This document shows positions 1 through 50,874 of a stretch of 64,000 nt of DNA, piece by piece (positions within the stretch are counted from its first letter, which is position 1; the number at the start of each line of letters is the position of its first letter). The position numbers were made by a program, and so were the translations under genes. Below the pieces are notes generated by a model. That model was not told the DNA's origin and made no database searches. It saw nothing but the letters and a program-made list of their open reading frames with translations. Source of the stretch: Microthyrium microscopicum (Eukaryota). The stretch is taken from contig MU004245.1 of assembly GCA_010405405.1 (NCBI GenBank), positions 9,256-73,255 of the forward strand, read 5' to 3'.

Positions 1-2143
1 CTAAACTTTTAACCTTAGTTTTATATAGTATTCTTTAACTATATTTATTATAAGAGAATCTCTTTCTTTATCCTAAAGGAAGAGCCTATATAAGATACTA
101 CTAAAATATTTAAGAAAATATTTAAAAAAATCTAGTTTATTTATTATTACTCTTATTATTATAATTAACTAATATATTACTAAAAGTTCTATTATCTTAC
201 TTATTCTTAATATTATTACTATTTTATTTAGGTACTAAATATATCTAGATATAATAAAGATTACTAATAAGTAACGTTCCTATATATAATAATAACTCTT
301 AGATAACTATTATTACTTTAAGTATCTAATTTACCTACTTATAGATAGAGCTTAAAGTAGTTCTTAGCTACTTCTTTAACTAGTTAGAAGTATAGATATA
401 TTTATTAATATAATTACTTAATTTAACTATAAAGGCAATATACTACTTACTTAGTAAGGCGTAAGATATAGGAATAGTACTATTTTAATTAAGAAAGAAA
501 GGTTATTACTTCTTAGTAACTACTTTAATAACTACTAAGTCCTTAAATATAATCCTAGCTTTATATAATATTCTTTAACTATATTTATTATAAGGAAACT
601 CTTTTTATTATTTTAAAAGAAGAGCTTATATAGAATATTACTAAAATAATTAAAGAAATATTTACTTACTTAATACCTTTACTATATTACTTAAGTATTT
701 TTACCTAGTTTAATAGCTATATAATAGTATCTTTATTAAACTAGGAATAGTAAATAAATCTTTAACTCTACTAGTTATATAAAGGAGTAAGTAGTACTAT
801 ATAATTAAAATAATAACTAGGCTAGTTTTAGCTTAATTTATATACTACTTACTATTACTCTTATTATTATAGTTAACTAATATATTACTAAAGGTGCTAT
901 TACCTTACTTACTCTTAATATTATTACTACTTTATTTAGATACTAAATATATCTAGATATAATAAAGGTTACTAGTAAGTAATATTTCTATATATAGTAA
1001 TAACTTCTAAATAACTATTATTACTTTAAGTATCTAATCTACTTACCTATAAATAAAGCTTAAAGTAGTTTTTTCTTTATTATATTACTTAAGTATCCTT
1101 ATCTAGTTTAATAACTTATTAAAAGTATTTATAAAGGCTTATAGTATATTAAATATTTTTTCTTATTATTAAGTAAGATTATGCTAGAAATATATTCTAC
1201 TTAGTAAATTCTTTAGACTTTAAATCTAATATATATATAAACTACTAAAGTTAAAAATATTACTAGAAGCTTCTTAAGTTTAGCTTAATAAACTATATAA
1301 TAGTACTAGATATAGAAATTTTTAAAGGAAACTCTCTTATTCTTATAGAAAAGATAATTTAAAAAAGAAAAAAGTTAATAGCGCTCTTTAAATAGTATAA
1401 AGTAAGAAAGACTTTTTTAGTATATTATAACTAGTCTTTAATATTAATTTTTATTAAACTAGGAATAATAAATAAATCTTTAATTTTACTAGTTATATAA
1501 AGAAGTAAGTAATACTATATAATTAAAATAATAACTAGGCTACTTCTAGCTTAAGTTATATACTACTTACTATTACTCTTATTATTATAATTAACTAATA
1601 TACTACTAAAGGTACTATTACTTTGCCTACTCTTAATATTATTACTACTTTATTTAGGTACTAGATATATTTAAATATAATAAAGGTTACTAATAAATAA
1701 TATTTCTATATATAGTAATAACTTCTAAATAATATATAGTATTAAAGGTTATAAAGCTTTATATAAAATTTTTAAAGTATACTATAAATATAATTAAATA
1801 TACTAAATAAATTTACTATTATAGGTACTAATTATTATTCTAAGTATCTAATCTACTTACTTATAAATAAAACTTAAGGTAGTTTTTTCTTTACTATATT
1901 ACTTAAGTATCTTTACCTAGTTTAATAGCTATATAATAGTATTAGATATAGAAATTTTTAAAGGAAACTCTCTTATTCCTATAGGAAAGATAATTTAAGA
2001 AAGAAAGAAGTTAATAATACCTTTTAAGTAGTATAAAGTAAGAAAGACTTCTTTAGTATATTATAACTAGTTTTTAATATTAATCTCTATTAGACTAGGA
2101 ATAGTAAATAAATCTCTAACTCTACTAATTATATAAAGAGGTA

Positions 2144-3240
2144 TTATTATTAATTCTTGCTTAACGTCTAGTAGCAGGCGCGCTACGAGCCTATATAGAT
2201 AAATGCTAATATTGGACCGTAAAAACCTATCTAATCTAGCCGATCTACCTAATTACCTAAGTGTTCTAACTATTAGTATACTAAAGAACTAAATTATATA
2301 GGAAAACTAACCCCTTGTGTTGCCGTTTACCCCTTAGGCTAACGTCCTGCTACTATGCTAAGCTTTATTGGAAGCTTAATGCAGCTGTAGGTAATTATAT
2401 AATATTGCCTCTAAATTCTAAGTAATGGCTTTTAATCGGCCTAGCTGGGGCTCCTTCTATACAATGGTTTGTTAGCTATTTAGGTAGTTACTTTTGTAAG
2501 TAACGGTGTACTATATGTTCTATGCTGAGGCCGTAGCAACGTAGCTTTAGTCTGAGTTTTATTCCTATTGCTTGTTTTAATTTTACTGTTTGTGTGTGCT
2601 ATGTTTTTTAAGGAAGCGCCGTTAGTTTACTAAAAGCTCTCTAACTACGCTATACTTTGCTTTAAGCCGTGAATTCTAATTTAGTATTCTGAAGAATATT
2701 GGCTCTTTTAGTAGGACAAGGCTAGGCCGGCCGATGTAGACTCTATAGTTGCTAGGCTAAGAGTTACGTAATAACTAGTATCTTATCCTTTCGGACTATT
2801 AATTCTTAGACTAATTTAGCTTAGTTAGATTTAATAATAGCTGTCTAATCTTATTGCTAAGAGCTATAGTAGAGAATCTTAGTATACTAAGTAGGCTCTA
2901 TTAGGTTTCTGTAGCGTCTTATATAGTGCGCTTTATATTGTAAGCTAGGGTCGCTTAGGATGCTATAAAAATATGCGCTAGACTATTCTAAGTTTAGTAT
3001 AGGCTTAGTAAGGAGGATCTTGCTGTAGCTAGTAGCTATAATTACTACTTTAGCCGTCATTGCTGCTACTTCTAAAAATAATAGATGGCGTGCCTACTAC
3101 TTCTAGAAGTAACTATTGCTAATTTTAGTCGTAATAGTTGCTAAAATTAGGGGGAGGAGTATAGGAATTAAACCCGCGCCTTCTCGATTCGTAGTAGAAG
3201 CTATAGTGAGTTGAGATGTGCCTCACTATACTAACTCTCC
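2144..3240 (-). mobile_element. tRNA-headed SINE-like non-LTR retroposon (~1.1 kb)
   Basis: Flanked by the direct repeat tatataaagaggta (2130-2143 and 3241-3254), and uninterrupted paralogous empty sites exist at ~775-800 and ~1492-1515. The minus strand starts with a tRNA-like cloverleaf and ends in a stem-loop plus (TAA)n tail. It is less RIP-damaged than its flanks. Confidence 0.8.
3153..3240 (-). pseudogene. Degenerate intron-containing tRNA-like head of the SINE (A box and B box)
   Basis: The minus strand reads GGAGAGT-TA-GTAT-AGTGAG-GCAC-AT-CTCAA-CTCAC-[~16 nt]-A-TCGAG-AAGGC-GCGGG-TTTAATT-CCTAT-ACTCCTC. After reversing C>T/G>A the acceptor, anticodon and T stems pair, and 3174-3164 becomes the B box GGTTCGATTCC. 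The isotype is uncertain (CAC in the anticodon position). Confidence 0.75.
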
Positions 3241-4191
3241 TATATAAAGAGGTAAATAGTACTATATAATTAAAATAATAATTAGTCTATTCTTAGCTTA
3301 ATTTATATACTACTTACTATTACTTTTATTATTATAATTAATTAATATACTACTAAAGATACTATTATCTTATTTATTCTTAATATTATTACTACTTTAT
3401 CTAAGTACTAAATATGTCTAGATATAATAAAAGTTATTAATAAGTAACGTTCTTATATATAGTAATAACTTCTAGATAACTATTATTATTCTAAGTATCT
3501 AATCTACCTATTTATAAATAGAGCTTAAGGTAGTCCTTAGCTACTTCTTTAACTAGTTAGAAGTATAAACGTATTTATTAATATAATTACTTAATTTAAC
3601 TATAAAGATAATATATAGCTTACTTAATAAGGCGTAAAATATAGAAATAGCGCTATTTTAACTAAAAAAAAAAAGTTATTACTTCTTAGTAACTACTTAT
3701 AGTAATAACTACTAAGTCCTTAAATACCTCCTTAGTTAGCTATAATAAATATAAAAGATATATCTTTCTACTAAATCTAGGAGATAAAAGCTTAGTTATA
3801 TATCTTACTTATAATTTACTAAGACTAGAATAATAATATTAAAGGCTAATTAGAACGTTTAGAAAGAATAGACTATAAAGATAATATATAGCTTACTTAG
3901 GGCGTAAAATATAGAAATAGTAATATCTTAACTAATTAGAAAAAGCTATTACGCCTTAGTAGCTAGTTATATAGTAATCTTTAATTCCTTTTTCTAAAAA
4001 CTATATCTTTTACTTAAAGATTATAACTATTTTATCTAAGTACTAAATATATTTAGATACTAATATCTAGATATATTTAGATATATTTAAATATATCTAG
4101 ATATATAGAAAGCTATTAGTAAGTATTATTTATATTCTATTATATATAGCTCTAGCTATAATAAATTTACTTAAGTATAGTATAAGCTATA

Positions 4192-4745
4192 TTTAAATAA
4201 CTATAATATACTTAATAAGTTTAAAATATTTTAAATAGTTTTATAATATTTTTAATAAAGTATATAATATTTTATATATATTTAATATCTTTATAATAAG
4301 TCTTAAATAACTATAATATACCTAATAAGTTTAAAATATTTTAAATAGTTTTATAATATTTCTAATAAAGTATATATTATTTTATATATATTTAATATTT
4401 TTATAATAAGTTTTAAATAACTATAATATATCTAATAAGTTTAAAATATTTTAAATAGTTTTATAATATTTCTAATAAAAGATATATTATCTTATATATA
4501 TTTAATATCTTTATAATAAGTTTTAAATAACTATAATATACTTAATAAGTTTAAAATATTTTAAATAATTTTATAATATTTCTAATAAAGTATATATTAT
4601 CTTATATATATCTAATATTTTTATAATAAGTTTAAAATAACTATAATATACTTAATAAGTTTAAAATATTTTAAATACTTTTAAAATATTTCTAATAAAG
4701 TACGTAGTTATCTTATATATATCTAATATCTTTATAATAAGTTAA
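4192..4745. repeat. 110-bp tandem satellite, 5 copies
   Basis: ctataatata recurs at 4201, 4311, 4421, 4531 and 4641 with near-identical units between. Confidence 0.95.
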
Positions 4746-8900: not shown

Positions 8901-11900
8901 ATACTAAGAGTAGAGTAATAAGAATTATCTACCTTAACTTTATTAAATAATATAGGATTCTTACTATTAATTTCTTTACCTCCTAAATTATATAATTAGC
9001 TAATAGTAAAGCTATTATAAAGGTTAATAAAGCTACTATAGTTAATATTTATTTAAGAGAATATATTAAATAAATCTACTACTTTGTTATAAATATTACT
9101 AATTACGACCTTATTCTTAGTAACTTATAGATTAACCTTTATAAGGTTATTCTTAAAGAAGGAAAAAAGTAAATCCTCTTTAATTTAAACTACTACTTAG
9201 TATACTACTTACTAGCTAGTTATCTAATCTTAATAGATTATAAAGGCTACTTAGTTAACCTAACTAATCCTTACTTTAAGAACGTTATTATAGTTAGTAC
9301 TATTACCTTTATTAAACTACTAGAATAAGGCTAGTAATTTAGTAAAATCTAGCTTAATAATTTTAAAGATAAAAAAGATAAGAAACTTCTAGATTTAGAT
9401 TCTATACTAAAAGAAGATATTACTATTAACTTAGGCAAAATTTTACCTAAGGACTTTAAAAAGTAGTAAGAGAAATATAATAAACTTCCTCTCTTATAAG
9501 AAGAGATTCTTAAATGCTTACTAAAAGAATATTACTATTATATAAATATCTTTAACTTAAAATTAGGTAATAAACTTATACTATACTATAACGAATAGGA
9601 TTACTTTATTAATATTATTCTAGACGCTATAATTCTTAAATACTACTATAATAGCTTAGGTTACTAAGAATTCTTTATTATTAAATAATACGTTAATTAG
9701 ATACTTAGTTAAAATTAAGTTTAGGCTAGTAAATTATATTACGCTATACTAATACTATATATGTATAAATTAGGAAAAAGAATTTAAGTTTATATTAATT
9801 ACTATAGACTTAATAAAATTACGTAAAAGAATTATAACGTTCTTTTATAGCTACTAGAAACTTTAATCTATATCTATTATATAAAATACTTCTCTAAGTT
9901 TAATGTTATTACTACCTTTATATATATCTATATTAAACCTAGTAATAAATATAAAACTATATTCTTAACTCATTATAGATTATATAAATTTAAAGTTATA
10001 CTCTTTAGCCTTACTAGAGCTTTAGAGACCTTCTAAGCTTATCTTAACTATATTCTAATTAATTACCTTAATAACTTTATTATAAGCTATATAGATAATC
10101 TATTAGTCTTTAGTAATACTAAAGCTAGCTATATTGCTTATATTTACTTAGTCTTAGAAGTAATAAGTAAAGTAGGATTATATTTAGATATTTAGAAGTA
10201 TAAATTTAATACTTAATAAGTTAAATACCTTAGCCTAATTATTACTACTAAAGGCATTAAGATAGACCTAAAGAAAGTTTAAAGTATAGTTAACTAATAA
10301 TGTCTCTTTTTAGTTAAAGACTTTTAAGCTTTTCTTAGCTTTACTAACTTCTATTACTAATTTATTCTTAAATATTTAAAGACTATAGTACTACTAATAA
10401 TATTTATAAAGAAGGATACTATAGTAATCTTTCCTTAGGACTCTAATAAACTAAAAGAACGCGTATTTAAGAAGCTAAAGATAAACTTTATATTTACTAA
10501 AATATTACGCTACTTTAACTATACTAAAGAAATATAGCTAAAGATAAATACCTTAGATTAGGTTTATACTATAGTTTTCTCTTAAAAAGGTAATAATAAG
10601 AAGCTTTACCTAGTTATATACTTCTTAAAGAAGATAACTTTAGTAAAATATAATTATAATATTTATAATAAAAAACTTCTAGCTATTATTTACGTATTTA
10701 AGGAATAGAAACTAGAGCTATTTAGCTCTATTAACCCTATTTAAGTATTCTTTAATTACTATAATCTTTAGACGTTTATAATAATAAAACGTTTCTCTTA
10801 ATAATAAGCTAAATAAGCTAAGTTCCTCTTTTAATTTTACTTTAAAATAAAGTACTAACTAGGTATAGCTAATAGAAAGATAAATACCCTTACCTATTAG
10901 TTATAAGATATCCTATAAAGTAATAATAATCCTTATATCTCTTAATAAGTCTAACCTTTACTATTCTTATACTAATTTAATATAGAGTATATAATAAAGC
11001 TAGCTATATTACTTATTAAACCTACCTATCTCTTAATACTATACTTAGCTACTATTACTTAAGATAAGTTAGATATTTCTAATCCTATAAGTAAGCTACT
11101 TAATCCTATAGAAGAGTCTCTTAGTAATAATAAGACGCCTAAGAGTAAGCTACTTAATCTCTTAAGAAATAACCTATTCCTAAATTTTAATAGTAACTAG
11201 TTTTTATAAGATATTATAAACATAGTAGAGTATAATAAAATAATAATTATTATCTACTACGCTAAAACTAACTACTAGTTCTTCTTACCCTTTAGTACTT
11301 TAGAATAAGAATAAATTAAGCTTAGAGACTATATAGTAGCTACTAATAAAATAATCCTTTACTATAACTAAATCTTTATTCCTTAAGGAAAGCTTTAGTA
11401 ACGCGTTATATAAAGTATATATAGCTATAAAGCTATAGGCTATAATAAAGCTATAATAACTTACTACTACCTATAAGAGAATTACTAGTAGCCTAAAATA
11501 TTATAGAACGTTAAAAGCTTTATTAAGGACTATAAATACGTATTTACTAAATTTATTTAGTAAAAGAAGTAAGGCTTTCTACGTTAATTCTCTCTTTTTA
11601 AGTACGTATAGTCTAATATCTCTATTAATTTTACTATCTTACTACTTTACTATTTATACTAAGGCGTAATCTACTAGTACATTATAGTAGTCATTAACTA
11701 ATATATATAGATCTAACGCTTTATTTTGCTATTAGACTTATTTATAGACTTAATAATACTAGCCTTTATTAACTATATATAGAAGCTTATTAACTAGCTA
11801 TTAATAATTCTTTTAGATTATAGTAGTTAATTTACTTCTATATTTTAGAAACGCTTATATAAATACGTAGGTATAGTACTCTATCTTAGTATAGTATTTT

Positions 11901-13144
11901 ACCCTAAAACTAATAGTATAATAGAAATCTTAGTTACTATACTTAAGTAATTCTTACGCGTATTTATTAATTAGAATTAAGATAATTAGGTAGCTTTTTT
12001 ACTCTTTACTAAATTTATAGTTAATTCTACTATAAACGCTACTATAGGAGTTATACCTTTTAAAGCTTAAAATAGATTTAATCCTTAATTAGGCCTTAAG
12101 TCCTTATATTGCCTTCTAAAACCTATAAATACCTTTATAGCTACTAATAAGGAAGCTATTAATATAGATATAATATAGAAGGGTTATACTAAGATATACA
12201 ATTATTTAATAGAGTAACTAATCTAGGCATAAGCTTAGTAGGCAGAATACGTTAATTATTATTACTACGTAGCTCTAGATTTATTACTAGGCAACTAGGT
12301 TTACTTAAATATATAGAACTACCCTACTTTATATTCCTTAAAGACTTTAGATAATAAGAATATAGGCCCCTTCTATATAATTAAGAAAATTAATATTATT
12401 ATCTATAAACTTAATCTCTTTATTTTTATAAAGATATATAATATCTTCTACGCCTAGGTCCTTTACTATATCGTAAATAACACTAAGCTACTTAAGTATA
12501 CTAATTTACTACTAATAGTTATTAAAGAAACTATAGATAATAATAAATAGTCTATTAATGCTATTATTAATAGCTACTTTACTAGTTAATATAAGAAGCT
12601 ATAATATAAAATTAAGTATACTAGTTATAATAAAGCTAAATAGTATAATTAAATAGCTACTAAGAATATACTAGAGCTTATTACTAAGTTTTACGCTTAG
12701 TACCTTAGTAAGCTAGGCCTATATCCTACCTAAATATTACTAATACTAGAGCTTACTAGTAATAATATTAATTATAACTCTAATAGCATTCCTACTAATT
12801 AGGAGGCATAAATAATTATACTACTAATTTCTTTATATTAATAGGATTACTAACTACTAGACTACTAAGACTTAAGAACTAGAGTATTCTAAAGACATTT
12901 TAGGGTTTATTAATATTTCTTAATAGTTGCCTTAGTAGGCTAGAGGTTAAGATACTTTAAACAACTAGTAATTAGTATTATACTATAAAAGGATTAAAAT
13001 ATTATTTATTACTAAAAGTTTATTAGACTAGATTAGACTAGACTAGACTAGATTAAACTAGACTAGATTAGAATAGAATAGATTAGGAAAGTAAATATAA
13101 TTAGTAGTTTATAGCCTAGAGAGCTATACTAAAGAAGAGGATTA

Positions 13145-19862: not shown

Positions 19863-22800
19863 TTAAGTAACTTTAAAACTAACCCCTCTTTTTACTTATT
19901 CTCTCTTTATCTATTAATAAATAGCTAGAATAGTAGACTAAGATCCCTCTTACTTAATAATTACTAGACAAGATAGAGAAACGTCTTCTAAGGGCTTTAC
20001 TTACAAAAACGTAAAAGCATACTTTATATATATTAACTAATAATAGATAGAGCTATAGAGACATCTAAATGTATCTTAGGAGGTAACTAATAATAGCTTG
20101 TAATAAGTAATAAATAGTATTTTACTACTTAGCAATACGCTAGGTTTATTTATCTTATAATTATATATAGCTACTACTAATTATAAATAAGCTCTTAAGT
20201 AGCTAAATACTTTAAATAGCGAAATTTATATATAATTAAATAAGAATACATAATAGATTATAGTAGTTTATACTAAACTCTAAGCCTAAGTTAATAACTA
20301 GAATAAATAACTTACTAATATCTATATTAGTAGTAAAATCCTTACGTAGTAAGTAAATAATACTATCTATAATATATTATTCTAGGGGAGTAGTATAGTA
20401 ATAGTACTTACAATCTTGTAGTAGGCCCTACCTACTTAAGATCCGTAGGGCACGGGTTTAATTCCTATCTTCTCTACTACCCTAAAAAGGTAATCGTTAC
20501 TCGCTTTTAAAGCTATATTTACCCTTTTTTAGGAAAGGTTATCCTTCCTTTTTTAGTAGATATAGAGAATAAGCTATAGCTTTTTTTAATACGTTATAAA
20601 AAGTATAAATTTTTATATTATATAACTACTATATATAGCTATAAGATTATCCTTATTAAAGCCTTACTAACTAATAATAAACTAGCGTTAAATTATATAA
20701 TTAAAAACTAGCTACGCAAAGTTATACTAAAAATAAGCTATAATACTACTAAAGCGTAATAAAATTAGTATACTAAGATAACTCTTTTATAGCTCTTAGT
20801 AACTAGATTAAAGGATTAGCCCTAGCTTAGTAAGCTTAAAATCTAGCTACGTAAAGTAAAATTAGACTAAATAATATAGTAGTAAATTATAATATCTAAG
20901 GATACTATAGCTTAGTAAGTATAGTACCTATAGGTTAGTATAAATAATGCTATAAGATAAGTTAGTAAACTTAGGAAAGATAACCTAGAATACGCTAAGC
21001 TAAAGAACTCTAGATCTTAGCTTAAAAGTAAAGCATAGCGTAGCGAATAGTTTTTAATAGACTAATAACGCTACCTTAGATTTAGTATTAAATAGTAAGA
21101 ATAGAAGAATCTAATATAATAATAAAGAAGGAATCTTAGCCCTTTAAGGAATAATAATATTAGCAACTTTAAGAACTTAAAGTAGTAGACTAAACAAAAG
21201 AATAATAACTTATAATAAAACTAGCTTAGAGAAGTACTAATAAGCTAAATACTTCCTAGAATTTAGCTTTCTAACTTACTAAAGCTTTTATAGCTTAGGG
21301 AGCTAATAAGGTTTAGTAGAGTATAATATTAGCCTTAGTATAGATTAGTATATAGAATATAATAGTAGGGTTTTCCTTTATATAGTTAGCGCCTTAGTTT
21401 GCTAAATATATAAAGGTTAGCTAAAGCTAGACTAGGCCTTAGGCCTAGAGTAAGCTAGCTTAGCTAGATTTAGGTAGATTAGCTAATTAGATAAGGGTTT
21501 TTACTTATTTATTAAGAGTAGCGTCTATATAGCCTATTAGCGTAGCTAAAAGATAATAAATAAGATTTAATAATAATATATTATTCTAATAATAATAATA
21601 AGAATAAAAATAACTTTAGAAGGAATCTATAATGCCTAGTATAACTTTTTCTTTAATACTAGCTATACCCTTTATTAAGAAAACCTTTAATTATAGCTAC
21701 TACCCTTCTCTAATTCTAAGAGCTAATCCTCCTTAGACTCTAATTATAATAGCTAGACTAATAAGCTCTTCTCTACTTTCTTTAATAAATCCTTTAGCTA
21801 CTTAGTATAAACTACTTTAACTACTACTATAAAACCTCTAACTAGCTCTTCTAAATTTAGAATAATATTCTTATAAGAATTTAATTCTCTACCTTAACTT
21901 TTACTAAATAATTAAAGTAAAATTATATATTAATAAATAGATTTATATAGATAATTATGCTTAAATTTATTAAATATTTAGCTAGCTAACTAAAGACGCT
22001 ACTTAATAAGTCCTCTTCTAAATCTAGAATCCTACTAGCTATAGTATTATAAGTTTTAGTAAATTTATAAAATAGATAAACCTTCTCTTCTATAATTTAT
22101 ATAAAAAAATAAGAACTTTAGTAAACCTCTAAGAGATTTAGTAAAGAAGTAAAAAATAAAGAATCTTTTAGGCTAAGTTTTAGTAGTATCTTATCTATAT
22201 TAAAGTATAATTTTAAGCTACTCTTATCTAGATATAATTCTTAGAAAACGCTATAGATTTAAGCCTTAGAATAGCTCTAATTACTTACCCTTAGCTTAAT
22301 AACTTAGATATCTTTACTTAAGAAGCTTTAGAAACCTAGGATTAAATAGTTTAAGCTTATATAAGCTATTATAGCCTAAGAAGCCTAAGTACTAAAATAA
22401 GTACTTAATAAACTTAGCTATTTAGAAATTAGGACTTAGATATAATAAAAAGCGTCTAGGTTAAAGCTAGCTAAGCTTAGTATAATTACTATAAGTAAAA
22501 TAACCTTTATTTTTACTATAGCTTAGCTAATTATAGAATTTAGGATTATAAATAAGCGCCCTAAGTATTATTTAGAAGTTAGAATTTTTTTTATAGCTAA
22601 GCTAGCTATAAATAAGAATAAGATAGAGAAAGTACTACTAAAAATAAATATCTATAAAATAATACTAGTAAATTTTAAGCTAGTGCTACTAATACTTTAG
22701 ATGCTCCTTAAAGTAGCTAGCTAATAAAGGCTACTACTACTTAGCTAAGAAATAATAATCTTTATAATAATCTATATAATATTACTAATATAGAATTAGA

Positions 22801-30009: not shown

Positions 30010-33000
30010 TATATATAAATCTTATTTATTATCTTTTAGCTACACTAATAGGCTATATAGATGCTATTCTTACTTTTAGAAAAACCCCTATAGAGAAACC
30101 TATAGTATTCCTTTAGTTGCCTTCTAGTAGCTTTATTCTATTATTATTATAATACCTTCTTAGTCTACTACTTCTAAATAAAAGGACTTATATTATCTCT
30201 CTATAAACTATAAGCTTACTAAAAGAATTCTAGTTAGTAGGTTAATATAGTAGGTAACTAGTAGTTACTAATTATTAGGAGCCCTATATAGCTTAAGTAT
30301 ACTATATATTATATAAATTCTATACTATACGTTAGAATCTTAATCCTTAATATTATCTCTATTATTAGTTTTCCTTTTAGGACTTATTTATTACTTAATT
30401 ACTTAAAGCTATAGCGTTTCTTAGGATAGGTTAGATTTAGCTTCTTAGTACCTATTTCTATTTAGTATTACCTTATTATTAAGTTTTACTATTATACTTT
30501 AATAAGTTCTTATTAATCTTCTCTTTTCTAGAAGCTTATAGCTATTATCTTTATATAGTTAACTTTTTATATAGTTTTATAATAAGCGTATATAATATAT
30601 ATTTTTAAGTTTTTATAATTAATTTCTACTTTTAATAGGCTTTAATATTACTATAGCCTTTAGCTATATTAAGCCCTTTCTTTTAATACTTATTAAGTAG
30701 AGTATCTATAATACTTTTTAGCTAAGTTTTCTTTATTAATCTATACTCTTTAATACTATATAATAAGCTACTAAATAGCTACTTCTAAGTTTTTAATAGT
30801 CTATATAGTCTACTTCTAAGATATAAAGTATTTTAAATTTATATAGTTTTAATTACTTTTTCCTCTTTAAGTTTTTATTATACTTCCTACTTTTCTTAAT
30901 TCTTTTTCTAAAAGTAAGTTCTTTATAGGCTTTTCTTCTCTCTCTCTTTCTTACCTTTAGGTACCTAATAAACGTCTTATACCTATAAGTATCTCTCTTT
31001 TATTATCTTTAAAAAAGGTAAAAACTACTTTATTTATAGATATTAAAAATACTACTTTATTCTTAAATATAAAATTAGCTAGTTTTATTCTAGCTCTTAT
31101 TATAAGTCTTTTAGTATTCTTTTATATATAGTATTAACTATTATAATATAGACTATATATATTCTTAGTATAAGAATTTATTTATACTATTTTTAAGTAT
31201 TATACTATTATATAAAGTTACTTAATAGTAAGTACTTAATTAATCTTAGCGTACTTACTATAGTAATTACTTATATCTATAGTTAGGCTAGTCCTAACTA
31301 ATATTTTTACTTTTATTATAAAGAGTAATATTTTAAATATAAAGCTATAAGTATATCCTTACTCTTAATTTTTTATCTTTTCTAATATTATAGTAAGATA
31401 CTAATAAAGTTAAAAAAGTAAGGTAAGTATCTCTAATATGCCTTTAATAAAGTAATAGCTAACTTAGTTAACCCTTATTAAGGTATTAAAGAGTATATAT
31501 TATTAAGTATAGATAAAGAGGCTACTAAGTAAGTAAAGGTTATAAAGGATTTAATAAGTAAGTTTACTAACTATAAGATCTAGTTTACTTCTACTATAGC
31601 CTTATTAATATAGTAAAAGAAAAAAAAGCTAAAGATTAATATAACTATACTAGCTACTAATTTAGCTTACTTATAAGCTATCTTGCTAGAGCTTTATACT
31701 TAAAGCATAAAGATAAATTTATTAATAAAGATATTCTAGTTATTAAGTAAAGTAGTATTATTATTTAATAAAGAGTAGTAAATAGATATAGAATAAAATT
31801 AATTATATTCTTAGACTTAGCTATTTCCTTTATAATTATATATTGCTAGCTTATTAGTACTATAGTATTATAGTTAGTTATTTATAAGATCCTTAAGTTT
31901 TAGTAGTTCTCTATATGCCTTAAGGTTTATTTCTATAATTTTTTTAGTTAGTCTAAATTACTAAAGAGCTTTACTTTTTAATAGCTATTTAGCTACTACT
32001 TAGATATTCCTTAGATTAGAGAGTATATAGACCTTATTTAGTATTATTGCTTATTCTAGTAATCTTTCTTTATAATATTATAAGTAGTTTAATAGTATAT
32101 AGTAAACTATTTATTACTAGTAACTATATAGATACTATAATAGAAGGACTATTAATACCTATATGCTATATAGCTAGTTATTAAGTCTAATAACTTCTAA
32201 TTATATAAGAAAAAGCGCTATTACTTATACTTTATTAAGATTATTATAAAGCTTAATTAGTTAGTTACTTTATAATATTCTCTATACTATAGTAGTATAC
32301 TACTATATTCTTATAAGCTATATCTAAATATTTATCTAGAGCCTATAGTAATATACTCTAATTAGGAATATCTCTAACTCTAATTTAGTTTTTACCTTCT
32401 TCTTTTTCTATAATATACTATCTATTAGTTATATTACTTATCTATAATTAGTATCCTACTTCTATTTTATTTCTAATCTCTTTTTTTATTACTTTAGTAT
32501 ATTAACTCCTTAAGCTATAATCTTAGTTATATATATCTATACTAATTTAAGTATTACTAAGCTTCTTAGTTATTATTACTAGAGAAGTATCCTTTAGTTC
32601 TTTAAAAGGTTTACTTAGTATATTTTAGTAATAATTTTACTTATCTTTTATATTACTATTAAGTCTTTATTCTTATTAATATATTTCTCTATTAAAACTA
32701 TAGCGTTTATTTAAAGTAGTTTAATCCCTATTTCCTTATTTAATAAAGTAATAAAAGTTCTTTAGTACTTTCTTATTATCTTATAGAGTATATTATTCTA
32801 AACTACTACTAGTAGTTTATAATAATCCTTTAGTACCTTAAGAAATAGTAATCCTAGACTTTATACTTATACTCTATATATAAAGGTTAGCCTAATAATT
32901 ACTATATAAAGGAGTTTTATCTTTCTAAAGACTAGTCTCTATCTTAACTACGCTATTTTTAAAAATACTACTACTTACTTAAATCCTTTAGTTCTAGTTT

Positions 33001-36000
33001 TTTTAATATAATCTTTTTAGTTTATCTTCTTATCTATTTATATACTTAATATCTTAATATTCTTTAGCATAAGCTTAGTAGATATATTATTTATTATTAC
33101 TATAAATTATAAGTCTATTTCTAAGTAGTAAATATTCTAAGTAAAGTATATTACTTAATACTTATTAGAAGTAAACTTTACTCTATATTTATTTACCTAA
33201 TTAGTATACTTCTAGTAGGCCTCTTCTAGTCTTATATAGTTCTTTTAAGTAGTATTGCTCTATATAACTAATATAGTATTATCTATAAAGCTAAATCTAA
33301 AGATATTATTACTTACGTCCTAAAAATATTCTAATAGTTCTAATATAAAAAAGAGAAAGAGGATAAATAAGAAAAAAGATCTCTAAAGGATCCTTATATT
33401 AGTTATTATTACTAAGCTTTANNNNNNNNNNNNNNNNNNNNNNNNNNNNNNNNNNNNNNNNNNNNNNNNNNNNNNNNNNNNNNNNNNNNNNNNNNNNNNN
33501 NNNNNNNNNNNNNNNNNNNNNNNNNNNNNNNNNNNNNNNNNNNNNNNNNNNNNNNNNNNNNNNNNNNNNNNNNNNNNNNNNNNNNNNNNNNNNNNNNNNN
33601 NNNNNNNNNNNNNNNNNNNNNNNNNNNNNNNNNNNNNNNNNNNNNNNNNNNNNNNNNNNNNNNNNNNNNNNNNNNNNNNNNNNNNNTATTAGTTTTAGAT
33701 TATTACTCTTCTTTTCTAGTTACGCCTTAAGCCTAAAAGCCTTTAGGACCTTATTTAGTATATTAATAAGTCCTATTGCCTTATAATTTAGGAGGCTACT
33801 AATTATATAATCTATCTCTTCTACTATTATCTTATAGTCTATCTTTAATTCTAGAAGTAAAATAGTATTCTCTATATTACTAAGGTTTACTACCTCTATT
33901 TAAGAAAAGAACTTTATAGATAGTATATTTACCTTACCTTAGTTATTATAGATATAATTATTACTAGTAGTCTATCTAAGTATTAATAGGTATAGGTCTT
34001 TTTTTAGTCTACTAGCTTTAGCTCTTATCTATTTACTTATTCTTTATAGGCCTTAGTTCTTATAACGTTTATAATTCTTTATAATCTCTTCTATAAAGGT
34101 CTACTAGGATATTACTTTATTCTAGTATAGAGATTTTCTTAGCTAAGCTATAATTAACTTATATATATACTTATCCTAGTTAGTCCTTATTTAAAAGTAT
34201 CTTTATTTTATATAATACTTTCTTTATATTAGTAGGATAGTTATAAGTAACTATCTATATAAAGCTTACTTTAAGGGTTTTACTTTTAAGTAGTAAATTT
34301 TTAATACTTCTATTATTACTCTATATAAGGCCTCTATTAGTATATCTTTAGTATTTTATAAGCTATTATTTACGTATTTAATAAATTATTCTATATTTAG
34401 TTTTTATATATTATACTATACTTTTAGTATATATTTCTCTTATCTTAGAGTTAGCTAAATTAGTATTAGGATATAATCTTCTATTAGTACTTAGGTATTA
34501 ACTAGGCTATAGAACTCTAATCTTTCTTAAAAGAATTAAGATAGGAACGTAAAGTTAATTACTATTTCTATTACTCTTACTCTTTTTTCTTTACGTAATT
34601 TATAAGTTAGTTCTTCTTCTAGTATATATAAATAGAGCCCTTACCTAATTATATTTTAGAGTAAGGTATTTATTTAGAGTTTAGTAGCTAATACTACGCC
34701 TTCCTATTAATAATAGTAATAGTTAAAGTCTCTTACTAATAAGATCTCTTCTTTTACCTTATTAATTACCTTTATTAGTATTAGGTATTTAGTAATATAG
34801 TTATAGTTACTTATTACTAGGCCTTTGCTATATATATTAATAATTATTAGTATTATATACCTATACTAAAGGCGTAGTATTAAGATAAATTAGTTATAAT
34901 GTCTTACTTATTAGTCTTCTATATTAAGCGCTTTACTTATTATAAAGTATACTCTTAATTAATTGTCCTAGTTATATACTAGTATATAGCTAAAGAGGTA
35001 GTATATTCCTTTTAGCTTTATAATTCCTTTAAGGTCTTAAATTACTATAATTAGTTACTTAATATTATTTAGTATATTAAAGAATAGCCTTACTTCCCTC
35101 CTATTTAATCTTTTATAGTTATATTATATAATATTAATACTATTTATTTAAGTCTATTATTTAGATTTTATTTATTTTATTACTAAAGGTTAGCCTAGAG
35201 TTATCTATAGCTTATTCTACTCTTCTATAGTTATTTCCTTATTAGTCTTTTAGGATACTATCTCTTATAGTTTATAAGCTATTATTACTTTTATTAAAGT
35301 TAAATATACTTATAATTAATCTCTAAGTACCTTAGACTAGATTATTACGTACTTTATTCTTTACCTCTTATAATACTAATAGTCTTTTAAAGTTCTTAGT
35401 TTCTACTTTTCTTTTCTTTATACTATTTACTATAGTATATCTATTATTATTTATAAGCTAAATTAGTATAATTTAGGTAAGTATTATAGCTCTTATCTAT
35501 TTTATATATCTTTTATTTATTACCTAGAATCTTTTTATATTCTTAAAATAGATTTAGTATACTTTATATATATTCTTTTATTATATATAGTATTTCTAGT
35601 TTTACTCTTTCTTTCTTCTTCTTCTTTTTTTATTATCTTTATAGTTAGAGTACTAAACTAGGCTTATCTTAGTATAGTTCCTAGTATTATAATTACTTAT
35701 ATATTTACTATAGTTTAATTTATACTAGGTATAAGCTATTTACGTATAGCTTTAAACTTAGTAATAATAGTACTATTTAGTAGTATATTTTAGGTTATAT
35801 AATCTAATAAAGAGCTCTTCTACTCTAATAATAAACTTCTTTTAAATAACTTTATCTCTTATTACTATTATTAAGTAGTATAATATAAGTAATCTCTTAG
35901 TATATATCTTTCTATACTTTTCTAATTCTTCTTTTACCTATTTATACTCTATATCTCTATAAAGCTACTAAACTACTCCTATCTCTAGACATTTAAACTT

Positions 36001-41100: not shown

Positions 41101-44100
41101 TATTATTAGATTATAATAGACTACTATTAGCTTAGTATTTATACTATAGCATTTAATTTACTTTAATGCTAGTATTTTAATTAATACTAGTAATAGTATA
41201 ATAGGAATTATTAACTCTTATTATCTTTAATAATATAGTATTCTTATTTTTTAACTTACATATTTATACTTAGTAATACTTATTAATAGTAAGTTAATAT
41301 CTATAGTTAATAAAGCTACTATCCTTAACTTATATATTAGATACTATATTAAGTAGATTAGCTATTTTATTATAGAAGTAGCTTCTTATAATTTAATTCT
41401 AAGAGCATCCTAGCTAGATTAATATAAAGTTAACTTATATAAAGGTTTAAGAATATTAATCTTCTATAGTATAAGATATATTATAAATTATATTATATTA
41501 TAACGCTTAATTATTATAAACCTAAAAGAATAATTTATAAACTTAGAATTACCTAAAGAATTAGATATTACTTTTATATCTATAGTAGCGTTTAAGAAAC
41601 TAATAAAGCATAAAAACGCTATAGTTAATATATTCTAGCTTAAAGATTTTAATAATAATAAAAAAAAGAAATCTCCTAATAGTAATAAAGATAATAATAA
41701 TAGATTCGTTATAAACTTTACTATATATATTATATTAAAAGAAGATTATCTTAAATAGTAAGATAAGCAAAATTGCCCTTACCTATTAAAAAAAGAGATC
41801 TTAAAACTTATCTTAGAACGTTTTTATTAATATTTTAAAGTCTTTAATTTAAAGCGTTTAGATATTCTTACGCCTTATTATAGTAAATATAACTACGTTA
41901 TTAACCTTATTCTTAACACCAAAATTCTAAAATACTAACTTATATTAATATTACTAAAATAAGCCTTAGTTATTAAATAATATATTAAGAGTTTACTCTA
42001 ACGTAGTTTTGCTATAGGTTTAAAGTCTTAATATACTATACCTATACTTTATATAAGCAAGCTAAGAAGAGGTATCTACATCTATATTAATTACTATAAG
42101 TTAAATAATATTACTATTAAAAATAGTAACGTCCTACTACTTATTAATAAGACGCTTATATGCCTTATAAAAACAAAGTATTACTCTAAGTTTAACGTTA
42201 TTACTACCTTTAAACGTATTTATATTAAACCTAAAAATAAATATAAGATAGTATTCTTAATATGCTATAGCCTATTTAAGTTTAAAATGCTACCCTTTAG
42301 CCTTATAAAGGAACTAGAGATATTCTAAGTATATACTAATTATATGCTAATATAGTTTTTAGATAATTTTATAATTATTTATTTAGATAATATTCTAGTA
42401 TTTAGTAAGATATTAGAAGAATATAACGCCTATATATATTTAATACTAAATATATTAGAACGTATAGGCTTATTTCTTAATATTAATAAGTTAGAGTTCA
42501 TTATCTAAGAAATAAAATACCTTAGTCTAATTATTACTATAAAAGGTATTAAGATAAACTCCTTAAAGGTTAATATTATAGTTAACTAGGAATAACTAAG
42601 TTATCTTAAGGATATATAAGCATTCCTTAGATTTACTAACTTCTATTAATAATTTATCTTTAATTACTCTACTATAGTAGTATTATTAATAAATCTTACT
42701 TAAAAGGATACTCTAGCTATATTTCTCTAAGACCCTAATAGGCCTAAGAAATAAGCTTTTAAGAAGCTAAAAGTAGACTTTACTAGTATACTAATTCTAT
42801 AATACTTTAATTATATTAAGGAAACTTAAATAAAGACGAACGTATTAGATTAGGCTTACGCTACTATATTATTATAAAAAGATACAAATAACAATCTAAG
42901 ACTAGTTACCTTCCTCTCTAAGAAAATATTACTAGTAAAATATAATTATAATATTTATAATAAAGAACTATTTACTATCGTCTATACCTTTAAGGAGTAG
43001 GAACCTAAGTTATTTAGTACTAAAAATATTATAAAAGTATTCTTAAATTATTAGAATCTTTAAACCTTTATAAAGACTAAGAAGCTTATACGCTATTAAA
43101 TACGTTAGGCTAAATTCCTATTATAATTCTACTTTTTAATTAAATACTACCTTAGTAAGAATAATAGTAAAGCTAACGCTTTAACCTAAAGATTATAGGA
43201 CGTACTATAAAATAATAAAGACTTATAAGTTAAGTAATAGTATTAACTACTTCTATTCTTATATTAATTTAGTACTAAATAAGCTATTAAGCTAACTATA
43301 ATCCTTATTAACTTAATTACCTTATCCTTTATATAAATAGCTACGCTTATATTAAATAAGCTAAATATTACTATAGTAGGAGAGTCTAATTTAGAACCTA
43401 TTATAGAAAGCTCTTAGAATAAAGCTTTAGCTAGTTTAGATAATTTGCTACTAGTTAATACTAAATCCCTAGATTTTAACCTAGAGTAGTTTATATAGGA
43501 AGTAATAAAGATAAGTAAGAAAGATAAGTTACTAATCATAATTTAACTAGTAAAGGCATAGAAAGACTACTTCTTGCCCTTTAGAGTACTAGATTAAGAT
43601 TAAATTAAATTAATAAATTATAAGGCTTTACTAAATAGTACTATCCTTTATTAATAAAAGTTATTTATACTAATAATATATTTATAAAATAAAGTAATAA
43701 AATAAGCGTATTAATATAAAGTTATAGGCTATAAAGAAACTATAATAACCTACTATTATCTTTAATAAGATTATTAGTAGCTAAGAATATTAGAATATAT
43801 TAAAAAATATATTAAAGGTTATTACTATATCTTTTTAAAGTTAGTACGCTAAAAGAAATAAGGGCTTTTTTACTTATTCTCTCTATTAGATTAAGCTTAA
43901 TCTAATATCTTTATAAACTTTACTATCTTACTACTATATTATATTTATTAGAGTATAGTTTATTAGTATATTATAGTTATTATTAATTATTTAACGTAAT
44001 TATAATAGTTTATTACTCTTTTAAGTCTTTTAGTAAAAACGATAGTTATAGTATTTATTAATTAAGTATAGAAGCTATATAGTTAGCTAGACTCTATTCT

Positions 44101-45417
44101 TTTAGATTAGAGAACTTAATTTATATCTACCTTTTAGAATTACTTATATAAATATATAAGTATTATATTAAGATTAAGTACTATATAGCATCTAGAGTCT
44201 AATAGTATTACTAAAATAACTATTACTATCTTAAAATAGTATCTTAGATCCTTTATTAATTAGGATTAGAATAATTAGGTAGCCCTATTATTATTTATTA
44301 AATTTATAGTAAATTCTACTATAAGTACTACTACTAGTTTCGTACTTTTTAAGGTATAAAATAGTTTTCTATTAAAATTAGAACTTAAATTTACTTATTA
44401 TTTACTATCTAAAGCATCGTACGCTTCTATTATAATACGTAAAGAAGTTATTATTACTAATTAAGTATAAGATAGTTAAAAGAAGCTTTATAAGTTTTTA
44501 AAGAAGTAATTAGTATAAGCTTAGGCTTAATAAAAGCTCTATGCTAATAAGTATTAACGTCTAGTACTAGATCTTTATCTTAGAGACTAGGTATAACTTA
44601 ACGTTTAAAATTATAATACAACTTACTTTTTAAAAATACTTAATAGTAAAAGTATTAATCTTTTTAAGATATTATATAAAATTAATAAAGTAATCTATAA
44701 ATTAGATCTTCTTAAATTAATAAAAATATACTTAGTATTTTATACTTAGTTATTATATCTAATTAATAATAACGTATATCTATTATAGGAATTAAACCTA
44801 CCCCTAATAGTTATTAATAAAAAAGAAAGCAAAGAAGAATAGCTTATTAATACTATTATTAATAGTAAATAGAATAATAAAGGTAAGAATAAGATACTTA
44901 AATATAAGATTAAATAGATAAGATTTTATAATAAAACTTAGTAGCCTTAGAAGAATGCTATTAACGTACTTAATACTATATTAGAATTCTATAGACTTTA
45001 TTCTTAAAAGCTTAGTCTATACCTTTCTTAGTCCCTATTAGTAAATAAAGTTAAAGAAGAAGATTATAATACTAATAAACTATTCGTAAATTAGGATTAT
45101 ATAGTATAAAAAGCGTTATATTTATTTATTTTTATTAATAGTATTATACTTTTAGTTTAGTTTTTAATTTACGCTACTAAAAGGATTATAGAATACTATA
45201 AACTAGTTTAAATAAATATCCTTTTCTTTATTAAATAGATTTAGATAGTACTAAGGTAAGTAGATAGTATATTACTATATCCCTTAGTAGTAATATATAT
45301 AAAGGAGTTTTATATTTATATAGACTAGCCTAGCCTAGCCTAGATTAACCTAGACTAGACTAGAACGAATTAGATTAGAATATAGCCTATAAGGTCTATT
45401 TTAGAGAAGAGGAGTTA

Positions 45418-45640: not shown

Positions 45641-48147
45641 TCTAAGGAGTTAGAAATAACTTTAAAATAACTATAATAACTTACAATAACTTTAGAAATA
45701 ATAAAATAGATAAGAGGATTTTACTAAAGTCTTAAGTTAAATAACTAAGTAACTAATCTAGCTATGCGCCTAAACGTCTTACTATAGGTTAAAATATAGG
45801 ATTTAGTACCTTTAATTTAATCTAGAAATAAAAAGATTAAAAACTATAGAGTTAGTAAGGATTCTAGAAATAAATAAAAAAAGGAATATTAAAATCTAAA
45901 AAACTTTTTTAGGCTACAACTAGTAATAGCTTAATAGTAAATTCTAATTTAAATTATAACTTACGTATCTAAACGAGGGCTATCTTGCAGTATACTTTTT
46001 ACTATTATAGCAATTATATTTAAAAAGTTATTAATAGAAATTAAAGAGTAAAAAATATATTTATCTTTAAATAATTATAACTTAATTAACTTTTAAGATA
46101 TAAAAATAATAACAATATATCTAGATAGAGCTTAATAAGCTCTAAATATTAATTTAAAAATTATACCTAAAAGTTACCTATTTAGGTTACAAGGTCTCTA
46201 ATAACTACAATAAATTTTAAATAATTATAATAGATTTTAAATAATTATAATAGATTTTTAATATATTTTAAATAACTATAATAAGTTTAAAATAACTAGA
46301 ATAATAAGAATTATTTAGTACTTTATTTAATATATATCTAATACGTATCTAATATCTTTAAAATAACTAAAATAATTATTTTACTATTAAATATATAGTC
46401 TAATTTATAATATATAATAATTTTTTTATAATAAGTATAACTTATATCTTAAAATAGAAATAGTTACTATATCAAAATATTTTATTTTTATATATAATAT
46501 ACTATAATCTAAGTATAGAGTTTTAACCTAAATTTACTAGATATTTCTATAAGTTTTACTTAAAAACTAATAGTTATAATTCTTTCTATTTTTTATAGTA
46601 TAGAAAGTAATAATTTTTAAAGATAGTAAATATAAGTAATATAAACTCTAGATTATTTATTTTATAATATTAAATAAATATATAAAATATATAGAAGCTA
46701 TAAGTATTACTACTAAAACTACGTAGAGCTTAATAGTTACTAGTAAACTTAATTTAACTTAGATGTAGCTATATTAAAACTAAGTTATATAAATTTTTAC
46801 TTATTCTATATACTAAAATTAAGTATCTAGATAAGTAAAGAAGTAGAGTAGACGTAATAATAAATTAAAAGTTACTAAAGAAAAGTAAAATTATTATAAC
46901 TTAAAGTATAATATAATTTTTATAAGAAAAGTATTAAATAATACTATATAAGCTATTTAGATATTAGTCTAATATATAAATTATAATACTTATTATAATA
47001 GTTTACTTTACTTAGATAATACTCTAGAAAATACTTTAGTAATATAGTCTAGTTTATAAGCTAGTAAAAATTAAGAGAGTAATAGATAATAGTTTTAGCT
47101 TAATAAGAAAAAGCTTATATATTCTCTAACTATTAATTATAATGTAGCATATATCTTAATTTATAACTCTAAATATATATAGTCTAATACAAAGCTCGCG
47201 CAAAGAAACTTTAGAAGCCGTAGTTTAAAGGTTAAATTGCGTTAAATAGAAACCCTATACACACACCTCTTTCGCGCAGAAGAAGCCTATTAAAGCTTTA
47301 CCTTAACGAGCTTAGTAAGCAGGAATTTTTCGAGTCAAAAGGGAAAAAGTCTGCTCTTAACTCTGGTGACTCTAAAGTGCGTGAAATGACAATATAGATA
47401 CTAATGCTTTTAATAACCAAAGCCTGGAGAAAATGCCGCATTTGCGGTAAGGTAGGTAGGTAGGTACCTTGACCGTTGACGCCACCCTAACAACCAGAGT
47501 TAGATATATGTATCTAAAAACTTGTTGGCTTTGAAGCTGTGCTCCGTAGGCAGAAGTGAGTTACTTGGTGAAGCCTTAAGAAACTTCAATTGTTTAGTGA
47601 TAGGGGATTGGTGGAGGTAGAGTTAGGCTGACCACAAGGCTGAAGAGGCAAACCTAGTTCGCAGATTAAGCGCTACCTCCGGAATGCGGTGGTGTTTTTG
47701 GTAAGGCAGCGGTGAATGGTAAAAGTCAACGAGTTGCTGCTGGAATGTTCTTTGTGTAAGAAAGGTGGGCTTACAGGGCAGGCACGGATCGCACCCTGGT
47801 CTTTTTGCCGCGAGATGTTAAGGCTGCAATAGGTCTACGTGGTGAACATTTGAAGCTCTGGCTCAACTTCTCAAGTGGCAGGACCATCCCAAGGTTGAAG
47901 GTTCCTTCCTTCACCATCTCAACCAGCTTCACCACAACTCTTTCACTCTCCAACATCTCCAACATCGTCTCGCTAGTCTGTCACTCTACCATTCATCCAA
48001 CACTACAAAACCTCGTCCTCCTTCTCCCTCCTCTCTTGCTATCCTCAACTCTCTTACACCAACTCTCCATCTACTCGCTGTCCCAACCACTGTCATCTGT
48101 TCCGTCCAAAACACCACTTAATCACATCAAAGCTCCAAGCTGCCAAT

Positions 48148-50874
<2,727 letters not shown>

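Follow-up and report, generated by a model that had tools for sequence, protein, structure and literature searches.

What is the 1097-bp segment that sits in an AT-rich repeat array near one end of a 64,000-nucleotide stretch of the Microthyrium microscopicum genome (NCBI GenBank assembly GCA_010405405.1, contig MU004245.1, positions 9,256 to 73,255 of the forward strand), and does it stand alone or belong to a family? An earlier note on this DNA, made from its letters, had described the segment as an unusually long short interspersed element (SINE) with a tRNA-derived head. Here we analysed the whole stretch (the window), one 64 kb piece of the genome to which all copy counts and searches refer, and found a second full-length copy and one 3′ fragment. 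We consider it probable that the segment, hereafter copy A, belongs to a retroposon family whose members are 1.1-1.2 kb long, non-autonomous and non-coding, carry a tRNA-derived head, are mobilised by a long interspersed element (LINE) and were later damaged by repeat-induced point mutation (RIP). The family inserted into AT-rich repeat DNA at least twice, in separate events, each time with a start at about tRNA position +1, with the same 3′ end and with its own target-site duplication (TSD) of 12-16 bp. The layout of each copy appears to comprise a tRNA-derived head with box A and box B, a unique body of about 1 kb, a 3′ module of about 85 nt with a hairpin, and a short TAA tail.

Copy A is an insertion into a tandem array

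The 14-mer TATATAAAGAGGTA has exactly two occurrences in the window, at 2130 and 3241, and on this basis the insert was delimited to 2144-3240, with a length of 1097 bp. The features that define the insertion are the following, with positions numbered from the first letter of the window.

2144..3240, minus strand: copy A, full-length element, 1097 bp between exact 14-bp repeats
2130..2143: TSD of copy A on the tail side, TATATAAAGAGGTA (plus strand), exact
3241..3254: TSD of copy A on the head side, the same 14-mer
722..870, plus strand: empty paralogous site for copy A in module 1, 90.7% identity over 150 positions across the junction
1428..1588, plus strand: empty paralogous site for copy A in module 2, 88.2% identity over 161 positions across the junction

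The repeat is weak evidence by itself. Exact 14-mers recur at a spacing of 800-1500 bp in 283 pairs across the AT-rich 47 kb of the window; most of these pairs come from tandem modules, and they are abundant because bases 1 to ~3560 form a tandem array with modules of roughly 640-720 bp. Decisive evidence for the insertion of copy A is given by the empty sites, which were obtained by joining its two flanks in the script and aligning the joined sequence to the window. Both the 1097-bp insert between 14-bp direct repeats and the empty sites in neighbouring modules had been claimed by the earlier note, and both were confirmed. Variants of the 14-mer recur along the array at 776, 1494 and 2130, the first two of them lying one in each empty site.

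The 5′ edge of copy A is ambiguous by 1 nt, as the final A of the repeat could equally be base 1 of the element, and the Rfam match to the second copy described below begins on the corresponding repeat-ending A. The earlier note had suggested that the 5′ junction may have been guided by microhomology with positions 2116-2123; the likeness there amounts to a 7-nt GAGTTAG match located 8-14 nt off the duplicated target and not at the junction.

A second full-length copy occupies a different target

The insert was used as a blastn query against the window, and the resulting hits were followed up by MAFFT alignment and nhmmer. Collinear pieces of the insert were found at 20432-21576 (E-values of 3.5e-21, 1e-08 and 0.029), within a second full-length copy, copy B.

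20385..21576, plus strand: copy B, full-length, 1192 bp, putative second subfamily (blastn, MAFFT, nhmmer)
20373..20384: TSD of copy B on the head side, TATATTATTCTA
21577..21588: TSD of copy B on the tail side, the same 12-mer

The 12-mer occurs four times in the window, and the repeat around copy B can be extended to 16 bp, with the extra 4 nt then overlapping the tail; TSD lengths are therefore given as 14 bp for A and 12-16 bp for B. Copy B begins with GGGGAGTAGTATAGT, and the 5′ starts of the two copies are comparable (GGAGAG in A, GGGGAG in B). Both copies start no more than 1 nt from tRNA position +1 and both finish on an identical TTAATAATAA, and their TSDs differ. The earlier note had proposed a family on the strength of one insert and had named as its refutation the lack of any other copy with the same 5′ end and a different TSD. 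This test was run within the window and copy B passes it: it shares with copy A the 5′ start at a tRNA-like head as well as the 3′ end, has a TSD of its own, and so makes a family of what might have been a single event.

Over 1053 aligned positions A and B are identical at 632 (60%) and differ by 187 transitions and 234 transversions, with a further 183 gap columns. RIP alone cannot explain this divergence, because RIP makes only C-to-T and G-to-A changes, and A and B look like two subfamilies rather than recent twins.

Copies A and B were inserted independently

An independence check was needed because copy B is flanked by a diverged member of the module family in which A lies; this host repeat extends around copy B over ~20190-21790 and is ~67% alike. 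The joined flanks of B were aligned, in a transition-tolerant manner, to the A module from which A had been removed, with 100 shuffles as control. The alignment scored 244, compared to 168.6 ± 9.4 for the shuffles (maximum 194, n = 100), and placed the B junction ~98 bp from the A junction, with the A module uninterrupted across the site of B and the B module uninterrupted across the site of A. Because the junctions lie ~98 bp apart, the modules are continuous and the TSDs differ, A and B go back to two insertions that hit different copies of one repeat in the same orientation.

The presence of both copies in one host repeat, in the same orientation and ~98 bp apart, could reflect either a target preference or chance. 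A 12-nt likeness upstream of both TSDs (ATAGTACTATTT and ATAATACTATCT), with a chance probability roughly estimated at a few per cent, was considered as a target motif and rejected, as the module alignment does not put the two stretches in homologous positions.

The head resembles a tRNA and carries putative promoter motifs

Both copies were aligned over the full length of the Rfam tRNA model, whose cut-off is 29 bits, and motifs resembling the internal promoter of RNA polymerase III (Pol III) were located in the head of copy A.

3153..3240, minus strand: tRNA-like head of copy A, Rfam RF00005, model positions 1-71 of 71, 16.9 bits, E 2.4
20384..20476, plus strand: tRNA-like head of copy B, Rfam RF00005, model positions 1-71 of 71, 25.9 bits, E 0.0013 (201-base search)
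3223..3233, minus strand: box A-like motif, TAGTATAGTGA, fitting 9 of 11 positions of the consensus TRGCNNAGTGG
3164..3174, minus strand: box B-like motif, GGTTTAATTCC, fitting 9 of 11 positions of the consensus GGTTCGANNCC
3186..3212, minus strand: extra segment in the anticodon/variable region of the copy A head, 27 nt against 9 in the tRNA model

All misfits to the box A and box B consensus sequences are C-to-T or G-to-A, that is, transitions of the RIP type, and box B is identical in A and B. Likewise, the non-standard pairs of the aligned fold (three of 20 pairs in A, one of 18 in B) can each be derived from G-C by a G-to-A change. Judged from these letters, internal Pol III promoter motifs consisting of box A and box B appear to be present, and the evidence leans towards a tRNA origin of the head.

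In the head of copy B, 35 nt stand where the tRNA model has 13, and the extra length across A and B is 18-22 nt. With the letters in the register of the Rfam alignment, copy A closes the extra segment by UCUC/GAGA and copy B by UAC/GUA, so that pairing persists although both strands of the stem have changed. Read as an intron, the segment in copy B follows a loop AUCUUGU as an insert of ~24 nt whose end pairs with that loop, and pairing of the intron end with the anticodon loop is typical of nuclear pre-tRNAs. Read as a variable arm, the same letters form a perfect 7-bp stem, GCCCUAC/GUAGGGC, and ARAGORN, at a lowered threshold, drew the de-RIP consensus made in the script with a long variable arm and an odd anticodon loop. 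Of the retained tRNA intron claimed in the earlier note, the extra 18-22 nt in the anticodon/variable region are there, but the segment may equally be a long variable arm as an intron retained behind the anticodon.

The body is predicted to be non-coding and ends in a shared 3′ module

Searches for further copies yielded one fragment, fragment C, which aligns with the 3′ ends of A and B.

2144..2153, minus strand: 3′ tail of copy A, TTAATAATAA, identical in A and B
2168..2189, minus strand: small 3′ hairpin, seven consensus pairs in A, B and C, one of them compensatory
30016..30105, minus strand: fragment C, only the last ~85 nt of a B-type 3′ end (nhmmer)

The tail TTAATAATAA directly abuts the TSD in both A and B. 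The element had been said to end in a (TAA)n tail, and it does end in this TAA-type sequence, although the TAA unit recurs no more than about three times. TAA repeats can likewise terminate LINEs of the I type. The hairpin lies 15 nt upstream of the tail and ends 25 nt before the last base of the element. A 3′ stem-loop had been claimed as well, and the seven pairs, with a compensatory one among three sequences, speak for it, but weakly, as the hairpin is no more stable than shuffled sequence (z-scores of +0.69 and +0.51).

Between the first and the last 30 nt of the element neither inverted nor direct similarity was detected, and terminal inverted repeats are absent. The longest stop-free runs are 48 codons in A and 49 in B, and no Pfam family was matched by either copy in its three sense frames, with stops translated as X. 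By this evidence the element is predicted to be non-coding and non-autonomous. Among other classes of mobile DNA, a DNA transposon or miniature inverted-repeat transposable element was rejected on account of the lack of inverted ends and the long, variable duplication, a Helitron was ruled out by the presence of a duplication, and a solo long terminal repeat was rejected on the 14-bp duplication and the absence of TG..CA ends.

The body contains runs of T, those shared by the two copies reaching T5 in A and T7 in B. One shared run, GGTTTTTAC, lies ~75 nt before the 3′ end and has the form GGGGTTTTT in fragment C. At one T-run of A, copy B reads TCGTT. RIP can create or lengthen T-runs from C and may have lengthened some of these, and the shared runs are probably old.

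Fragment C was detected with an E-value of 9.9e-08 by the full A+B profile and of 7.3e-09 by the tail profile. It follows the B-type end nearly letter for letter and then reads TATATATA in place of TAATAATAA. Its similarity begins ~10 nt before the shared T-run; a start at this point suits a module boundary and proves nothing. Fragment C may be a 5′-truncated copy, or else a tail that belongs to the partner LINE or to a sister family. A TAA-type run, ATAATAATAATA, at 30120-30150 on the minus strand, ~25 nt upstream of the start of fragment C, might be the tail of another retroposed element.

Profiles of the head, of three body segments and of the tail found nothing in the window beyond A, B and C, the next-best E-values being 0.056 with the whole-length A+B profile and 0.23 or higher with the segment profiles. 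Metagenome scans gave 0 matches both for a 27-nt pattern from the 3′ end of B and C and for a 31-base pattern common to A and B.

Search for a partner LINE

The Pfam scan covered 70 of the 75 stop-free runs of at least 45 codons in bases 1-47200, the five in or beside copy A being left out and the sense frames of copy A being covered by a scan of their own, described above. Matches to transposon domains in the scanned runs were limited to two RVT_1 and two SH3_Tf2-1, which pair up as follows.

RVT_1 at 10037-10192 (E 0.0034) and SH3_Tf2-1 at 12317-12454 (E 2.3e-05), plus strand: Ty3/gypsy remnant 1
RVT_1 at 42356-42505 (E 0.00012) and SH3_Tf2-1 at 44609-44746 (E 2.9e-05), plus strand: Ty3/gypsy remnant 2

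In each remnant the reverse-transcriptase piece is spaced ~2.2 kb from the Tf2-1-type SH3 piece. These matches belong to the two Ty3/gypsy remnants and were rejected as evidence of a LINE. A protein search with the SH3-domain reading frame at an E-value of 1e-120 gave no hit. Matches to PBP2, GDH_2nd, DUF4321, TypeIII_RM_meth and TM225 (E-values between 0.0016 and 0.047) were weak and were treated as chance. In the search for an element sharing the 3′ module, only fragment C was found in the window.

RIP and the genomic setting

The window has two parts. Bases 1 to ~47,000 are AT-rich, with a GC content of 0.12-0.33 per kb, and the remainder has a GC content of ~0.40-0.54 and bears genes. TpA/ApT is 1.68-2.02 in the AT-rich part versus 0.70 in the genic part, and (CpA+TpG)/(ApC+GpT) is 0.02-0.56 versus 1.23; read against the usual thresholds of these indices, the AT-rich part bears the marks of RIP. 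Both copies of the element were mutated by RIP after insertion, their TpA/ApT being 1.97 (A) and 2.02 (B) as compared to 0.70 in the genic part. Copy A has a GC content of 0.36 and a (CpA+TpG)/(ApC+GpT) index of 0.56, and lies in flanks where this index is 0.02; copy A therefore probably arrived after most of the RIP damage of the array.

Two genes were recognised in the GC-richer part.

48742-50874: CDC48-type AAA ATPase
52960-54261: S10 carboxypeptidase

The carboxypeptidase frame shows 100% identity to a protein recorded under the name Microthyrium microscopicum, a Dothideomycete, with the next hit at 69%, and a protein atlas likewise pointed to Ascomycota. A piece of the CDC48-type protein was uninformative as to taxon, matching distant fungi at 96-97% identity. 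The border between RIP-marked DNA (GC 0.14 at 46-47 kb) and gene-bearing DNA (GC 0.40-0.54) is abrupt, at ~47000-47500, and the start of the CDC48-type ATPase gene lies no more than ~1.5 kb from it. At 4192-4743 there is a tandem repeat with a 110-bp unit, 5.0 copies and 94% matches, far less diverged than its RIP-damaged surroundings. A run of ~265 N at 33422-33686, open in all six frames, is an assembly gap within the AT-rich block. Four DNA sequencing runs of one study contain the stretch, three of them being marked as possible sources of this DNA, and no RNA run is listed as containing it.

Discussion

The anatomy of the two copies suggests how the family would have spread. Insertion by a LINE fits them, because the TSD is of variable length, the tail is a simple repeat, the 5′ end is fixed and the 3′ module is conserved. 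A LINE would supply the endonuclease and reverse transcriptase that turn the element RNA into a new genomic copy through target-primed reverse transcription, and the mobiliser would probably be of the I/Tad1 group common in Dothideomycetes.

A number of results weigh against a tRNA-headed, LINE-mobilised family. The two full copies and one fragment all come from one 64 kb window, and identity between A and B is as low as 60% while transversions outnumber transitions, so that parts of their alignment may be unreliable. No LINE domain was detected in the 70 scanned runs, and the 3 kb upstream of fragment C matched 0 Pfam families. As for the tRNA-derived head with A and B boxes that the earlier note had claimed, the full-length model alignment and the boxes are found in both copies, but the scores of 16.9 (A) and 25.9 (B) bits lie below the Rfam cut-off, and a scan of the whole window with the Rfam tRNA model at 29 bits gave 0 matches. 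ARAGORN found no tRNA in the window, called neither of the two native heads with introns allowed, and called the de-RIP consensus only at a lowered threshold; moreover, the lowest-energy folds of the heads are not cloverleaves and are no better than those of shuffled sequences (z-scores of -0.99 and -0.74). Runs of four or more T number six in A and ten in B, with four positions common to both. Such T-runs terminate Pol III, and the shared ones should stop the enzyme, which argues against a full-length Pol III transcript; a full-length RNA may arise if Pol III reads through the runs, or another polymerase may make it. Finally, lengths of 1097 and 1192 bp exceed the usual SINE range, taken here as about 80-700 bp. 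The designation as a SINE consequently stands in part: the element is non-coding as far as its frames tell and has box A-like and box B-like motifs, shared ends and variable TSDs, but its length and internal T-runs depart from the strict definition.

These last points lead to the most substantial competing explanation, namely that the family is real and its head is not a working promoter, the RNA being made by Pol II or by read-through and the tRNA-like fold serving, for example, for a cut by RNase P at +1. We regard this as possible but rather unlikely. It would account for the T4-T7 runs shared inside the body, for a length of 1.1-1.2 kb and for the fact that both copies begin within 1 nt of tRNA position +1, and fungal elements as long as 700-900 bp have been called SINEs in the passage of PMC5063351 that treats them. 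Box A and box B, however, can be made out, the latter without any difference between the two subfamilies; T-runs can be created or lengthened by C-to-T changes of RIP, as the TCGTT of copy B at one run of A illustrates; and a working tRNA fold would invite cleavage on the 3′ side too. A different account of the T-runs, no more probable in our view and put forward tentatively, is that the element records the birth of a SINE: the Pol III transcript of an intron-bearing tRNA would have run ~1 kb to a T-run, where the reverse transcriptase of a LINE would have switched template to the last ~85 nt of the LINE. Were this so, the head would retain a pre-tRNA intron, the shared T5 run would lie within ~10 nt of the start of the fragment C similarity, and fragment C, rather than being a truncated copy, would be a tail belonging to the donor LINE or to a sister family.

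The remaining alternatives dispute the family itself. That A and B are 5′-truncated copies of a LINE, and so LINE tails instead of a separate non-autonomous family, has in its favour fragment C, whose restriction to the last ~85 nt would be expected of a truncated copy or of a LINE tail; yet A and B share one 5′ end in tRNA-like sequence, whereas truncation scatters 5′ ends, and neither their sense frames nor the 3 kb upstream of fragment C yielded a Pfam family. We consider this reading very unlikely overall; it fails for A and B and is possible for fragment C. Slightly less probable still is a single ancestral insertion later duplicated together with its host repeat, segmentally or in tandem, so that A and B would not be separate transpositions. 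The homology of the flanks of B to the host repeat of A, in the same relative orientation, would be expected from such a duplication, but the ~98 bp between the junctions contradict a single insertion, the sequences of the TSDs are not the same, neither module copy is interrupted at the insertion point of the other, and the two modules adjoining A are empty. The least probable of all, and one to which we give hardly any credence, is the alternative offered by the earlier note, a tRNA/retro-RNA chimera that arose once: nothing beyond copy A itself speaks for it, and it is contradicted by copy B, in which head, body and tail follow one another in the same way at a different site. The family could nevertheless have originated from a chimera of this sort.

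The preferred reading, a tRNA-headed, LINE-dependent retroposon family, places A and B among elements of a known kind, within which they would be unusually long and RIP-damaged. The fungal SINEs named in the passage of PMC5063351 comprise Mg-SINE (472 bp, tRNA-derived), mgsr1 (800 bp), Egr1 (700 bp), EGH24 (900 bp), nrs1 (500 bp), Foxy and SINE2-1_BG, and the AfuSINE2 families of Aspergillus fumigatus have duplications of 4-14 bp (PMC5063351). With Mg-SINE of Magnaporthe, Foxy of Fusarium oxysporum and AfuSINE2, as described in that passage, A and B have in common the absence of coding capacity, short terminal direct repeats and a dispersed distribution, and probably a tRNA-related 5′ head as well (PMC5063351). 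The A/B family is set apart from Mg-SINE by description, not by sequence, being 1.1-1.2 kb long and thus more than twice its length; again by description only, it differs from Mg-SINE, Foxy and AfuSINE2 in its extra 18-22 nt, its short TAA tail and its degradation by RIP. According to the same passage, mgsr1, Egr1 and EGH24 are likewise dispersed retroposons without coding capacity that far exceed animal SINEs in length (PMC5063351), and in comparison to these the A/B family is of even greater length and occurs in another fungal class. The claim of unusual length is thus borne out in that 1.1-1.2 kb tops all fungal SINEs of the passage, but is tempered by these reaching 472-900 bp (PMC5063351), and long 'SINEs' are something of a fungal habit.

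Concerning the mobiliser, the consulted part of a transposon survey of the Dothideomycete Cochliobolus heterostrophus gives 101 copies of I-superfamily LINEs with endonuclease, reverse-transcriptase and RNase H domains, and names no SINE among the transposon classes it found (PMC4112212). I-superfamily (Tad1-like) LINEs, such as I-1_CH and I-2_CH of this species, would be the likely kind of mobiliser, and none was found in the window. Compared with LINE tails that have been mistaken for SINEs, fragment C is alike, being headless and limited to the ~85 nt of the 3′ end, whereas A and B differ by their fixed 5′ end in a tRNA-like head and by having no reverse-transcriptase remnant. A literature search that covered main texts, with Repbase, Dfam and SINEBase outside it, found no description of the A/B family.

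The family leaves knowledge of how such elements work unchanged, and its value lies elsewhere. Descriptions of fungal SINEs are few, and such elements escape automatic annotation, above all where blurred by RIP. With its tRNA-like head, known ends and two putative subfamilies, the A/B family is a seed for annotating the genomes of Dothideomycetes, and it gives a means of dating insertions against RIP. If the intron reading or the composite origin is true, it would also be a clear example of a tRNA gene and a LINE tail combining into a new mobile element.

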